This document shows positions 42,632-46,647 of a stretch of DNA of 64,000 nucleotides, piece by piece. The stretch is taken from NCBI GenBank assembly GCA_012178725.1, contig GCA_012178725.1_3030.1, one strand, 5' to 3'. This stretch comes from a phage. The notes under the pieces were generated by a model. It was not told the origin of the DNA and did no database searches. It saw only the letters and a list, made by a program, of their open reading frames with translations. The position numbers and the translations under genes were made by a program. Each line of letters opens with the position of its first letter. Position 1 is the stretch's first letter.

Positions 42632-44314
42632 TTAAACCATTACAGTAAATCGACCAACTTTCTTCATTTGAAGATGCTGACCATATTCTTGCGGGTCATG
42701 GTCTTTATGTGAAATTATAAAAACATTAGTGTTTTTCATTGAATTTATAATATTAGCTACACCTTTAATACCTTCGGCATCAAATGACCCATCAAACACT
42801 TCATCGAGTATTAATGTACTAATACTAACACCAGATACAATAGAAGCAATATCACGCCAAGTAAATAAAAGAGCAATATCAATTCGTGCTTTTTCACCTT
42901 CACTAAATGAAGCATAACTAAAATCTTCACGACCACGGGATTTAATTGTCTCATTAAATTCTTCATCTAATGTAAACACATAATCCGCTTCCATTATTTT
43001 AAGATAATGGTTAATCTGCTTATTAAATAATGGAATGTACTTTTTAATAATAGCACCTTTAATACCAGAATCTTTGAGCATATCAGTCAAAATTCCTCTG
43101 TGGTATTTTTCCATTACTAAATTAGTTTTTGTCTTAACAATTTTATCAAGTTCTTCTTGAAGCAGTGCTATTTCATCAGCATGGTCAATAAACTCAGAAG
43201 ATGCTTTTTCTATAGCCGCTTTAACCTTTTTAGCTTTATCTACCGTCGTGATTAGAGATTGCTTTTTATTGCGAATATCATTTGCCAACGACTGTTGGGT
43301 TTTAATATTATCTCGGTATTCATCAACAAGAACTTTTAAATTATCACGGTGTGTTGAAAGCTGTTCAAACGAATGCGTACATTCAGAAACTTTATCTTTA
43401 ATTTTAGAAACAACTTTATCACCGGAACTTAATTGTGACAAGCAGGTTGGACATAATCCACCTTCGTGATACATATTAATGACTTTATTATACGAGTCAA
43501 TTTTTGATTTAATTAAAACTGCTTCTTGACCGATTTTATTAAATGCATCAGTCGGGTCTTCATCTAAAACAATATTAACTAATCTTTCATTAGCTTCTTC
43601 TATTTCCGATTTTAGCGTTCTAGCTTCTTTTGCCAAATCATCATACATATTTTGAAGACGAGTAAGGTTGTCACCCGTTAATTTTTTCTGGCGTTCAACG
43701 TTATCATTATATATTTTAATTTGTTGGATAATACTATCTTTTTTAACATCAAGCACTTGGTTTTGTGAATTTAATTCACGTATTAGTGCTTTATTAAGCT
43801 TATCCATTTCAGCTAATGTTCCTACCTCAAGCAGGTCTTCCACAAGCTTTCTTCGCGCAGGGGTCGACAAACCCATGAAAGGGGTATACCCTGCTGTACC
43901 AAGGACAACAATCTGCTTGAAACTGGCATATGACATTCCGATAAGCTGTTCAAATTCTGCTTGGAAATCTTTACTGCTGGCAGATTCATTAAGACGTGTA
44001 CCGTTAACGGTGATTTCGAAAACGTTCGGTTTTTGTCCTCTTTTGATATAGTACTTTTTCTCATCATATTCCATCCACAGTTCAACTAAAAGTTCTTTCT
44101 TATTTGTGCTGTTTATTAATTGACCTTTCTTTACATCACGAAATGGCTTACCAAAAAGCCCAAATGTGATGGCTTCTAACATAGTAGACTTACCACCGCC
44201 ATTTCGGCCAGTAATAAGAGTTTTTTGAACCTTATCTAATTGAATGTCAACTCCATTTTGACCAACTGACATTATATTTTTATATTTTACTCTATTAAGT
44301 TTAAATGATTTCAT
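42632..44314 (-). CDS. 46: Recombination nuclease subunit gp46 (SbcC/Rad50-like ATPase)
   Basis: 560 aa; Walker A GRNGGGKST, coiled-coil middle with CPTC zinc hook, C-terminal signature/Walker B. Confidence 0.95.
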   Translation of the reverse strand: MKSFKLNRVKYKNIMSVGQNGVDIQLDKVQKTLITGRNGGGKSTMLEAITFGLFGKPFRDVKKGQLINSTNKKELLVELWMEYDEKKYYIKRGQKPNVFEITVNGTRLNESASSKDFQAEFEQLIGMSYASFKQIVVLGTAGYTPFMGLSTPARRKLVEDLLEVGTLAEMDKLNKALIRELNSQNQVLDVKKDSIIQQIKIYNDNVERQKKLTGDNLTRLQNMYDDLAKEARTLKSEIEEANERLVNIVLDEDPTDAFNKIGQEAVLIKSKIDSYNKVINMYHEGGLCPTCLSQLSSGDKVVSKIKDKVSECTHSFEQLSTHRDNLKVLVDEYRDNIKTQQSLANDIRNKKQSLITTVDKAKKVKAAIEKASSEFIDHADEIALLQEELDKIVKTKTNLVMEKYHRGILTDMLKDSGIKGAIIKKYIPLFNKQINHYLKIMEADYVFTLDEEFNETIKSRGREDFSYASFSEGEKARIDIALLFTWRDIASIVSGVSISTLILDEVFDGSFDAEGIKGVANIINSMKNTNVFIISHKDHDPQEYGQHLQMKKVGRFTVMV

Positions 44315-44329
44315 TTTGTATCCAATTGT

Positions 44330-45184
44330 TCACAATGAAGAAAATTCTTTAACTAAAGCCTGTAATGAAGCCTCTATTGGATATCCATTCTTAACTAACA
44401 TTTTCCTAAACATTACATGTTTAGGACGATTATATGATATCCACAATTCATACAATTTATCTTTATTATCCCAATGATAGCCTTTTCGTCGAGATGCTAT
44501 ATGAGCTTTTCTAATCTCCGGATTTTTCCAACTAGCAGCTACTGAATTTGATATAGCTATTTTATATTCAGGTTTTGATAAAGCAGCACGAACAGCCTTT
44601 TGGTGTTTAATTTTATTTTCTTCGTTATTAAACCATTCCCTTGAAGCCATTGAAATTTTTTGTTTTGTTTTAAAATTATTTAATCTTTCTTTATTATCTT
44701 TCCTATTTTTTGCTACTGAAAAATATTTTAATGCCCTTTCTCTAGCAGCATTTCTATTTTGCGGATTTGAATAATACTGTTGAAGCCTTTTTGATATTGT
44801 GTCACTTACATCTTGTTTTATAAAACTATATTCAGCAGCTATTAAATCAACTTCGGCTAAAGATAAATTTTTATATGTTTTTCCTGACATCATTCTATTT
44901 AAAGCATTTAGCATTTTTCCATTTTTACCTTTTGCTAATAAGAAGTGTGCTTTAAAATGATTAAAATGACTTAAATTAACTAAATTCCATGTAGATTTTA
45001 AATATTCAGGAAATATTGATTTAGGAAGCACGTGGTGTGCTTCCGTTTTACCTGGAGTTTTAACAGTTGAATTCACAGAAATAAAATTAATGTAAGACTT
45101 GGCGTCTTCTTCACTCAACGCTAATTTTTCAACTAATTCCTTTATTAAAAATTCATCATTAATGTCAAGTTTAAAATTCTTCAC
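44330..45184 (-). CDS. Free-standing HNH homing endonuclease (mob-like) with C-terminal basic repeat motifs
   Basis: 284 aa, GTG start with AAGGAA SD; EAHHVLPKSIF...NLVNLSHFNHFKAH HNH core; repeated ...KPEYKIAISNS / ...WKNPEIRKAHIAS... DNA-binding-like motifs. Confidence 0.7.
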   Translation of the reverse strand: MKNFKLDINDEFLIKELVEKLALSEEDAKSYINFISVNSTVKTPGKTEAHHVLPKSIFPEYLKSTWNLVNLSHFNHFKAHFLLAKGKNGKMLNALNRMMSGKTYKNLSLAEVDLIAAEYSFIKQDVSDTISKRLQQYYSNPQNRNAARERALKYFSVAKNRKDNKERLNNFKTKQKISMASREWFNNEENKIKHQKAVRAALSKPEYKIAISNSVAASWKNPEIRKAHIASRRKGYHWDNKDKLYELWISYNRPKHVMFRKMLVKNGYPIEASLQALVKEFSSL

Positions 45185-45387
45185 AAAAGATTCCTTTTAA
45201 TGTATCTTTTAGACCATTCTATCATATCATCATAATCTAAAAAGTATTCATCAAATTCAGCCATGCAAACAACACCTTGTGCTGCTTTTGATGTGATATA
45301 AATTATTCCAACATATCTAGAATCTTCTTCGGTGTAATCAATATTTGCTATGAATTCATCGTTAATGTCAAATGTCGAAAACTTCAC
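45181..45387 (-). CDS. Hypothetical protein (46.1-like); N-terminus duplicated in the adjacent endonuclease
   Basis: About 68 aa from GTG (VKFSTFDINDEF...); start uncertain; overlaps upstream ORF. Confidence 0.35.
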   Translation of the reverse strand: MKFSTFDINDEFIANIDYTEEDSRYVGIIYITSKAAQGVVCMAEFDEYFLDYDDMIEWSKRYIKRNLL

Positions 45388-45631
45388 AGTATGCATCCTT
45401 AATACAAGATACAGCCATATCTCGCAATGATTTAGGTGTGTCATTATCTAAAATGTTGAAGTTAAAGGATACAGCCCAGTCAGTGCAGACCGTAACCTTT
45501 TTAATACAATTATCTTCAACCTCTAGCGGTTCAAACCAATATTCAATAATTTCTTTATGACCAATATCATCTTTTACTTCGCATTCAAAATGCTGACTCA
45601 TCATAACATTTTTAAATTCATCAAAAGTCAT
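45368..45631 (-). CDS. Hypothetical protein (46.2-like)
   Basis: 87-aa ORF; ATGA overlap with gene 47. Confidence 0.45.
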   Translation of the reverse strand: MTFDEFKNVMMSQHFECEVKDDIGHKEIIEYWFEPLEVEDNCIKKVTVCTDWAVSFNFNILDNDTPKSLRDMAVSCIKDAYCEVFDI

Positions 45632-46647
45632 TGTGTTGCCTCTACATATAGCTGATTTGCATATTGAATAAGTGCTTCACGATCAGAATCAGTGATGTCT
45701 GGAATTGCATTAATATACTCTTCCATTAATGTCTGAAGCGATTGAACTTCAACTTCTTCACTGTCATCTGACTCGACAGAGTTATCAATCTTTGACACAA
45801 CTCGTAATGAATGCACAACTTTTTCTAGTTCAGATTCGAACTTCGTTAGATTTTTGTCTACTTCAGTTACTATAACACGTACTGATAGATTTGTAAAATC
45901 TTTATAGTCAATTTTTCCCTTAAATGGATATTGAATTCGACGATGCCAGGTAGTGTTGTTTGGAATAAATTCCATTCGTTCTGTTTCTGTATCAAACATC
46001 CAGAACCCGCGAGGGTCATTCTCGTCACCTGCAGTTAGTGTCCATGGTGTCCCAATATATCTGACGTTAGCAGCCTCAGAGATAGTATGGAAGTGACCAG
46101 ACCACACCTCTTTATAAGTCTTAAGGAAATCAGGTTCAAGACCGTGAGATTTCATTCCTTTATAAAAATAAAATCCATTCAGTTCCCAGTGACCAACGCA
46201 AAAAGAAGCAGATGAAGTTTTGATGTGTTCAAGAATTTCACCAGTATTTTCTTCACACATCCAAGGAATTAAATCAATCAAACATCCGTCAAAATCTACT
46301 GTAGTAGGCTTATCATATACTTTAACATTAGGATATTTAGCCAAAAGCTCAGTAGAAGCATTTGGAGTTAAAGTATTTTTAAAGTGCATATCATGGTTTC
46401 CTACAACAGTATGCAGGGTAATACCAGCATCATCAAGCATTTGAACTATTTCACGGGCGAATTCCATAGTTTTATGTGTGATTGCTTTTCGCACATCAAA
46501 AATATCGCCGTATTGAATCCATGTAGTAATTCCATTTTTCTTAGAATATTCTATTGCCTGTTTAATTCCATCCAACTGAATGGATTGAACCCACTCATCA
46601 TCGGCTTTAACACCTAAATGCCAATCACCTAAATTTAAAATTTTCAT
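45628..46647 (-). CDS. 47: Recombination nuclease subunit gp47 (SbcD/Mre11-like phosphoesterase)
   Basis: 339 aa; calcineurin-like motifs (GDWHLG, GNHD); T4 gp47 size. Confidence 0.95.
   Translation of the reverse strand: MKILNLGDWHLGVKADDEWVQSIQLDGIKQAIEYSKKNGITTWIQYGDIFDVRKAITHKTMEFAREIVQMLDDAGITLHTVVGNHDMHFKNTLTPNASTELLAKYPNVKVYDKPTTVDFDGCLIDLIPWMCEENTGEILEHIKTSSASFCVGHWELNGFYFYKGMKSHGLEPDFLKTYKEVWSGHFHTISEAANVRYIGTPWTLTAGDENDPRGFWMFDTETERMEFIPNNTTWHRRIQYPFKGKIDYKDFTNLSVRVIVTEVDKNLTKFESELEKVVHSLRVVSKIDNSVESDDSEEVEVQSLQTLMEEYINAIPDITDSDREALIQYANQLYVEATQ

Follow-up and report, generated by a model that had tools for sequence, protein, structure and literature searches.

A promoterless Mob-type HNH homing endonuclease cassette within the start of gene 46 of a T6/RB51-like phage, with a candidate target in the 5' end of the same gene

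The DNA analyzed here, a stretch of 64,000 nucleotides (nt) from a phage (NCBI GenBank assembly GCA_012178725.1, contig GCA_012178725.1_3030.1; hereafter the window), carries on its minus strand an open reading frame (ORF) of 284 amino acids (aa) between gene 46.1 and gene 46, the latter encoding a Rad50/SbcC-like recombination nuclease subunit. Judged from its sequence, the ORF is the gene of a Mob-type free-standing HNH homing endonuclease, an ordinary selfish element, and comparison with related phages indicates that its cassette is a promoterless in-frame insert after codon 6 of gene 46, where it has taken over the native start of that gene and supplied a replacement. We assign a probability of about 0.75 to the whole account that we favor, namely a Mob cassette in the gene 46 start that contains a relic piece of 46.1 and has its target in the gene 46 5' end.

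Comparison with T4 defines the insertion site to the nucleotide, and in this respect the original prediction, that the locus marks an insertion point, was borne out. The operon 47-46.2-46.1-46 is also present in T4, without the 284-aa ORF; there, gene 46 directly follows 46.1, and its GTG overlaps the 46.1 stop, with the boundary reading ...AAAAGGAATCTTTTGTGAAGAATTTTAAACTT to the left and AATAGAGTAAAATAT... to the right. T4 gene 46 begins with GTGAAGAATTTTAAACTT and continues with AATAGAG. The window has the same 18 nt in the same place (45184-45167) and equals T4 through AAACTT, after which GACATTAATGATGAATTT... follows for the remainder of the ORF. Because T4 is identical through AAACTT, the Shine-Dalgarno sequence, GTG and first six codons of the ORF are the gene 46 initiation region left in place (45167..45196, minus strand; AAGGA at 45196-45192, then GTG and codons 2-6, giving MKNFKL). 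AAGGAATCTTTTGTGAAGAATTTTAAACTT forms the start of gene 46 in T4, as in every HNH-less Tequatrovirus locus that was examined, and HNH carriers aligned with an HNH-less query were 100% identical up to exactly the end of this native start.

The insert relative to the empty site of T4 comprises 870 nt (44297..45166, minus strand), lies in frame with gene 46 between codons 6 and 7, and has boundaries that are ambiguous within a 9-nt exact direct repeat, TTTAAACTT. Its length is also 870 nt in T6, and 869 nt in RB51 and 868 nt in T2. It is flanked by an imperfect repeat, GTGAAGAATTTTAAACTT on the left and ATGAAATCATTTAAACTT on the right, of which 9 nt are exact. The right-hand copy (44297..44314, minus strand) is the replacement start that the cassette brings along: the cassette ends with TGGATACAAAATGAAATCATTTAAACTT, immediately before AATAGAG, and thereby gives gene 46 a new Shine-Dalgarno sequence (a weak GGA, 7 nt upstream), an ATG and its first six codons. 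ATGAAATCATTTAAACTT was found in all HNH-carrying Tequatrovirus loci examined, and GTGAAGAAT in the HNH-less loci. The RNA fold around this cassette-borne start was unremarkable (z = -0.87). The GTG of the endonuclease ORF (45184-45182) overlaps the 46.1 stop TGA (45183-45181) in a GTGA coupling, and the ORF list contains no alternative start codon between this GTG and the catalytic motif, so that the endonuclease depends on the hijacked gene 46 start. Scans for promoters, late promoters and sense-strand terminators in and around the ORF yielded nothing above chance on the coding strand; seven endonuclease cassettes of T4 are likewise promoterless (PMC2988022).

The N-terminus of the ORF is a patchwork of gene 46 codons 1-6, 46.1 codons 7-12 and then the endonuclease itself. 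The region's top repeat pairs 45141-45185 with 45344-45388 (45 nt, 76% identity, spacing 203 nt), and the 35-nt segments on which the original prediction was based agree at 28 of 35 positions. Its 19-nt core, TTGACATTAAYGATGAATT, occurs in the window only at 45150-45168 and 45353-45371, with a chance expectation of 0.01 and two matches in 0 of 100 shuffles. The first copy, at the left edge of the insert, is the block that stems from 46.1 (HNH ORF codons 7-12, DINDEF), and the second is its source at the start of 46.1 (codons 6-12), both on the minus strand. Strictly, the out-of-place 46.1 sequence is only GACATTAATGATGAATT (45166-45150), which T4 does not have at this position; the block thus amounts to 17 nt, or to 19-20 nt if an ambiguous TT and the TTT codon are counted, and it is exact over 19 nt against T4 46.1 and over 20 nt against RB51-type 46.1 (loci L017 and L016). 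FDINDEF aligns with conserved 46.1 residues of RB69 and Karamvirus, and hence the block is native to 46.1 and not to the endonuclease; endonuclease homologues elsewhere have unrelated N-termini until LIKELVEKL aligns. In both structure models, residues 1-10 were unstructured and the first predicted helix began at residue 11, which fits a grafted leader.

The ORF runs intact from GTG 45184 to its stop at 44330 (44330..45184, minus strand) and contains the HNH-like motif that had been predicted for it, EAHHVLPKSIFPEY...WNLVNLSHFNHFKAH. The catalytic motif can be written E48-A-H50-H51-VLPKSIFPE...W66-N67-LVNLSH-F-N75-H76-FKA-H80, and H50, H51, N67, H76 and H80 were invariant in alignments with homologues of 24-44% identity. 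This core (residues 48-80; 44945..45043, minus strand) was modeled by AlphaFold2 as a strand at 48-51, a strand at 68-71 and a helix at 73-83, with a predicted local distance difference test score of about 85-90. The protein matched PHROG 655 ('homing endonuclease', E=8e-45) and PHROG 12434 ('HNH endonuclease', E=4e-15). By tblastn, it was 36% identical to MobC-like proteins (mobC-annotated genes) over 73-80% of the query (E about 1e-21 to 1e-22), 30% identical to MobD over 83% of the query (E about 2e-11), and ~36% identical to MobE-like N-domains at residues 31-120 (E=2e-7). RefSeq already labels the copies in T6, PP01, RB68 and other phages 'homing endonuclease'. The repeated basic helical motifs of the C-terminus (NPxxR/K...; 44480..44770, minus strand), which were also part of the prediction, are seen at the DNA level as repeats D3-D5; they are presumed to form the DNA-binding region and are conserved in the homologues of phages F2 and SEA1. 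The structure model of the 284-aa protein is of low confidence in this part. Weak domain matches to putAbiC and MUG113 in Pfam and NCBIfam were rejected as spurious.

Mobility of the gene, as the original prediction had proposed, agrees with its sporadic distribution. It was found in 72 of ~518 Tequatrovirus records that are otherwise ~98-99% identical and was missing from ~446, and no other occupant of the site was seen in the Tequatrovirus records. Intact copies are the majority (of the 72 tblastn hits, about the first 56-60 are in a single piece), and the HNH sequences of carriers show 1-14 differences in 888 nt. Two copies have been frameshifted independently, that of RB51 by deletion of one A in an A6 run at window position ~44661 and that of T2 by deletion of two A's in an A4 run at 44576-44575. 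The exact empty site, including the HNH-linked GGAGTT, was present in four HNH-less records, and GGAGTT versus GGGATT at gene 46 nt 63-64 was accordingly rejected as an HNH-specific marker.

What accompanies the gene is a short stretch of gene 46 itself. Two alleles of gene 46 nt ~17-66 exist among HNH-less Tequatrovirus: the T4-type or Q-type allele (...CTTAATAGAGTAAAATATAAAAATATAATGTCAGTTGGTCAAAATGG..., YKNIMSVGQNG) and the majority G-type allele (...CTAAACCGAGTTAGGTATCAAAATATAATGTCAGTAGGTGGAAATCCT..., YQNIMSVGGNP). Identity bands comprised ~355-371 G-type, ~71-75 Q-type and 72 HNH-carrying Tequatrovirus records, and the Q-type tract was present in all of the last. HNH-carrying phages of other genera, F2, phiEC1 and SEA1, are also Q-type (KNIMSVGQNF, SNIMSVGQVP), and the HNH-less RB69, KMB38, mobillu, S16, STML-198 and Karamvirus RZH are G-type. 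In the window the HNH-linked variant tract spans gene 46 nt 19-66 (44249..44296, minus strand) and encodes ...YKNIMSVGQNGV; the minimal tract common to three genera is nt 34-66 (44281-44249).

The tract is sharply bounded. At gene 46 nt 10-33, SEA1 agrees with the window at 24/24 positions and with its congener S16 at 14/24; at nt 34-57, F2 agrees with the window at 22/24 and with its congener RB69 at 15/24; and at nt 67-120, each HNH carrier (window, F2, SEA1) agrees with its HNH-less congener at 51-54 of 54. The tract flanks are 96-99.5% identical between carriers and HNH-less congeners within each genus, and Tequatrovirus showed no HNH-specific substitution in 1300 nt leftward, nor rightward of gene 46 nt ~66. 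The F2/RB69 pair limits the common linked differences to gene 46 nt 1-9 and nt 34-66. The cross-genus detail was drawn from two HNH-carrying and three HNH-less Mosigvirus genomes and from one HNH-carrying and two HNH-less Gelderlandvirus genomes. Such a pattern is expected if the enzyme cuts G-type gene 46 and the resistant Q-type tract travels with the gene, and we consider gene 46 nt ~34-66 to be probably a cleavage-resistant, co-converted target.

HNH homologues of 43-44% identity are located between genes 47 and 46 in Mosigvirus and Gelderlandvirus as well. The Mosigvirus-like phages F2 and phiEC1 have the order 47-46.2-HNH-46, without 46.1; Gelderlandvirus SEA1, Melville and others have 47-HNH-46; and the HNH-less RB69 has 47-46.2-46.1-46. 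Over 300 nt upstream, F2 is 96% identical to RB69, and the two are 98% identical again inside gene 46; ATGACGAAGACTGATTATGAAA, the first seven codons (MTKTDYE), is common to RB69 46.1 and the F2 HNH ORF, with divergence thereafter. The endonuclease of F2 has thus taken the place of the 46.1 body and is fused to the 46.1 start. A related case is found in Gelderlandvirus. In STML-198, the gene 46 GTG is coupled to the 47 stop (CTCGTGAAAACATTT; locus L020, 680-720). In S16 a 46.1-like cistron occupies that CTCGTGAAA start (GTGAAA, coupled to the 47 stop; locus L019, 690-900), and gene 46 has a fresh ATG, so that takeover of a start by an incoming cistron recurs at the 47/46 locus. RefSeq gives this S16 ORF only as a truncated 40-aa version, the full ORF beginning VKLHEFNLGNGW... 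The word 'recent' in the original prediction is made doubtful by the ~44%-identical homologues at the same locus in two other genera and by the decayed copies of T2 and RB51.

We propose the following course of events. In an ancestor, the endonuclease would have replaced the body of 46.1 and been fused to its first codons, as in F2 and phiEC1 today; the DINDEF block would be the relic of such a 46.1(1-12)::HNH fusion in a Tequatrovirus ancestor, a view that the F2 fusion supports. A later, unequal microhomology-mediated join of the similar 46.1 and 46 starts could then have resulted in an intact 46.1 with the endonuclease downstream of it. In mixed infections, by analogy with MobE, the enzyme would nick or cut the 5' end of an HNH-less gene 46 at ~nt 34-66 (codons 12-22, ...YQNIMSVGGNPID...), and repair would then copy the cassette together with the resistant version of the tract. 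T4-type phages, which have the resistant Q-type tract without the gene, may have arisen by loss of the cassette across the 9-nt TTTAAACTT repeat or, alternatively, by conversion that stopped short of the endonuclease gene. With the T2 copy dead and both T2 and T4 of the Q-type, classical T2 x T4 crosses would not reveal the element.

Several observations weigh against parts of this account. Pfam HNH models gave no match to the 284-aa protein even at E<=1, and fold searches returned no significant nuclease match. NCBIfam likewise gave no HNH-domain match, and PDB sequence and profile searches found nothing relevant; membership of the superfamily hence rests on the motif and on Mob homology. A literature search found no paper that describes or tests an endonuclease at 46.1/46, and a review of T4 mobile elements names mobA-E only. 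The Tequatrovirus 46.1(1-12)::HNH junction was not found in phage records, IMG/VR or genome contigs: an exact junction-pattern scan of IMG/VR and GTDB genome contigs gave none, a synthetic-junction megablast against phage records gave only two-piece matches, i.e., the present arrangement, and all listed members of the 85-member 90% protein cluster begin with MKNFKLDINDEF. IMG/VR contained no HNH-carrying loci, and a metagenome scan found only distant HNH domains in unrelated contexts. Few genomes underlie the cross-genus tract comparison; Dhakavirus QL01 and locus L014 have tracts of the K..GQ type but no HNH gene; and the tract could be associated with the gene through physical linkage and nothing more.

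Of the ways in which the patchwork start might have arisen, the one put forward in the original prediction is very improbable. It held that the gene was inserted between 46.1 and 46 and that ~37 bp of the 46.1 start, comprising the ribosome-binding site and 12 codons, were copied to obtain a translation start. The 45-nt repeat to which it appealed is real, its core lies far beyond chance, and its coordinates were found as predicted, except that 46.1 starts at GTG 45387 and not at 45389. However, the shared region is composite: 46.1 contributes no more than codons 7-12 (17-20 nt), HNH-less phages have the very same Shine-Dalgarno sequence, GTG and codons 1-6 in place at the start of their gene 46, and the likeness of AAGGA and TGTGAAG to 46.1 pre-exists in T4. 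An endonuclease-less relative thus already has that half of the repeat, an outcome that the original prediction had itself named as refuting, and what the insertion duplicated is the gene 46 start itself (GTGAAGAATTTTAAACTT left, ATGAAATCATTTAAACTT right), not that of 46.1. Another possibility retains the hijacked gene 46 start and regards the 46.1 block as filler of break repair templated 203 nt upstream, or as a later short-patch ectopic conversion. The closeness of the source, the 19-20/20 identity of the block with the resident 46.1, which would fit ongoing or recent copying, and the failure to find the ancestral arrangement all speak for it, yet the block keeps the reading frame, in the homologue alignment the endonuclease-specific sequence takes over right at its end, and a natural 46.1(1-7)::HNH fusion exists independently in F2 and phiEC1. 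We therefore regard filler or conversion as unlikely, though a credible competitor to the relic of a former fusion.

The role ascribed to the gene 46 tract has competitors too. Gene 46 nt 1-66 may be hitch-hiking donor sequence, with the recognition site elsewhere, at the insertion point or farther in 46/47. The cleavage site of a free-standing phage endonuclease can lie hundreds of bp away from its gene (PMC2988022), Q-type tracts occur without the HNH gene in other genera, and tight physical linkage would by itself predict the association within Tequatrovirus. It is difficult to reconcile with this that the right boundary at ~nt 66-67 and the diagnostic codons K/S12 and Q19 recur in three genera whose endonucleases are ~44% identical, and that Tequatrovirus has no HNH-specific differences across 1300 nt on the left side or past nt 67 on the right; hitch-hiking is, in our opinion, possible but doubtful. 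A clearly improbable reading is that the gene is no longer mobile here, being a decaying passenger or co-opted, for example to exclude competitors, and kept for the translational coupling of gene 46. The frameshifted T2 and RB51 copies agree with it, and the near-identity of carriers would be compatible with clonal inheritance, but most copies are intact, and the flanks are freely recombined mosaics in which the gene is linked to the short tract only, as for an element moving between backgrounds. We retain the reading of a mobile cassette with a candidate target in the 5' end of gene 46.

A broader extension of this reading is more tentative, and we would put it at somewhat less than even odds: gene 46 nt ~34-66 would be the conserved homing site of an old Mob lineage across at least three Tevenvirinae genera, with distinct allele states, a scar in T4 and repeated takeover of starts. 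If so, the states in Tequatrovirus would be susceptible G-type (~70%), endonuclease with resistant Q-type (~14%) and Q-type alone (~14%), and T4, belonging to the last class, would have a gene 46 start that is the scar of a lost endonuclease. Newcomers (46.1 in S16, HNH in F2, HNH in T6) would have repeatedly taken the coupled start, and the sequence in which this happened could be read from the chimeric N-termini. The element would also target a subunit of the very gp46/47 nuclease that homing repair needs.

Among known systems, the closest parallel is MobE of T4, whose gene lacks a promoter and overlaps the stop of nrdA, and which nicks the neighboring nrdB in its 5' region (PMC2790892). Both MobE and the 284-aa ORF have an N-terminal HNH domain with a distinct C-terminal region, and both are promoterless cassettes in an operon whose start overlaps the upstream stop; an overlap with the preceding ORF is frequent among free-standing endonucleases, which are inherited along with co-conversion tracts on their flanks (PMC2988022). 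A target in the 5' region of the adjacent, conserved downstream gene, with co-inherited flanking polymorphisms, would be a further likeness (PMC2790892, PMC2988022), which for the 284-aa ORF is putative. Unlike with MobE, the locus and putative target here is gene 46 and not nrdB, the nuclease activity is a predicted one, and the cassette sits inside the first codons of its target gene and uses the initiation region of that gene; there is also no internal intrinsic terminator as in mobE, only an 8-bp hairpin without a U tract. MobC and MobD of T4-like phages, which fall in the same PHROG, are the closest annotated relatives outside the locus, but their insertion sites differ (nrdG/nrdD and nrdC.11/mobD.1; PMC2988022), they are themselves uncharacterized, and a patchwork N-terminus has not been reported for them.

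Endonuclease genes within a host coding sequence are known from mobE in nrdA of Aeromonas phage Aeh1 and from mobA in T4 gene 60/39 (PMC2988022, PMC3045599), and there, as here, the host gene stays functional through new start and stop signals. In contrast to those cases, only six codons of gene 46 were split off, and these are duplicated in the cassette, so that gp46 is still made in one piece and the endonuclease has gained the orphaned codons as its leader. In SegG/gene 32 and SegF/gene 56, an endonuclease gene is coupled, as here, to a short donor-type substitution tract in a neighboring essential gene (PMC2988022); SegG and SegF are GIY-YIG enzymes with experimentally mapped cleavage sites, whereas the tract described here was derived from comparative genomics only.

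The window interval is 99% identical to KIT03, PhiZZ23, T6 and RB51, which places it in Tequatrovirus, T6/RB51-like. The gene order on the minus strand is a-gt, 47.1, 47, 46.2, 46.1, 284-aa ORF and 46. Gene 47 lies at 45628-46647, gene 46.2 at 45368-45631 and the upstream neighbor 46.1 at 45181..45387 (68 aa, intact; DUF5487, Pfam PF17589, E=2e-49); gene 46, the host and probable target gene, lies at 42632..44314 with its ATG at 44314. The HNH gene ends in a TGA that is in frame with the gene 46 ATG and 15 nt away from it (window 44312-44332), so that stop-codon readthrough would fuse both proteins. In P0021 (290 aa), a natural variant, a frameshift close to the 3' end puts the HNH stop on the gene 46 start in an ATGA coupling, and in F2 and SEA1 the homologue and the start of gene 46 share 14 nt, read in different frames. 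Exactly over the EAHHVLP codons, the minus-strand RNA contains a perfect 8-bp hairpin, GGAAGCAC-ACCAC-GUGCUUCC (window 45024-45044), with a fold z of -4.5 against shuffles. It has no U tract on the sense strand, its complement is terminator-like on the plus strand, and it is absent from the F2 and SEA1 homologues; it might be regulatory, given that mobE has a functional internal terminator hairpin.

The surroundings of the locus are variable in other respects. A second endonuclease gene, mobB-like and on the opposite strand, lies between 46 and 45.2 in RB51, G28 and F2 (loci L016, L018 and L005) and is not present in the window, T4 or T6. The last ~250 nt of gene 46 (window 42632-42880) exist in at least three mosaic variants (RB51/G28; T2/iv9/iv12; T4/T6/window), and since these variants track the mobB-like gene, gene 46 may have a second hotspot of co-conversion at this end. 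In G28 (vB_EcoM-G28; locus L018, 437-1060), a 207-aa ORF replaces the 46-aa gene 47.1 upstream of 47 as a further variable cassette. The divergent, Tequatrovirus-like locus L014 (IMGVR_UViG_2706795408_000001, 2500-2760) has 46.1 (MMKTFEFNLDDEF) and gene 46 (VKTFKLKK) that both open with ATG/GTG-AAG-ACT-TTT, another pair of similar adjacent starts. Phage Ac3 (locus L017, OK040907.1; 2501 to at least 5851) was left out of the comparisons since its record is recoded. It is 100% identical to RB51 until the first base of the HNH ORF and ~74% identical from there; its guanine-cytosine content rises from 29% to 45% from the ORF on; and the changes, which span the HNH gene, gene 46 and beyond, resemble synonymous recoding (E. 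coli-style codon optimization). The record looks engineered or chimeric rather than a product of natural variation.

The 284-aa ORF is an uncharacterized addition to the known Mob class and no new kind of element. It provides a nucleotide-precise case of how a selfish endonuclease becomes established in an operon of closely coupled genes and leaves an important host gene unharmed, by taking the ribosome-binding site and first codons of that gene and bringing a replacement start along. The comparative data nominate a ~30-nt candidate target in gene 46, with T6 predicted to be a donor, RB3/RB6, which are HNH-less and of the G-type, susceptible and T4 resistant. If confirmed, this would be the sixth characterized Mob-type system, and it would explain the mosaic hotspot at the start of gene 46, T4 included.

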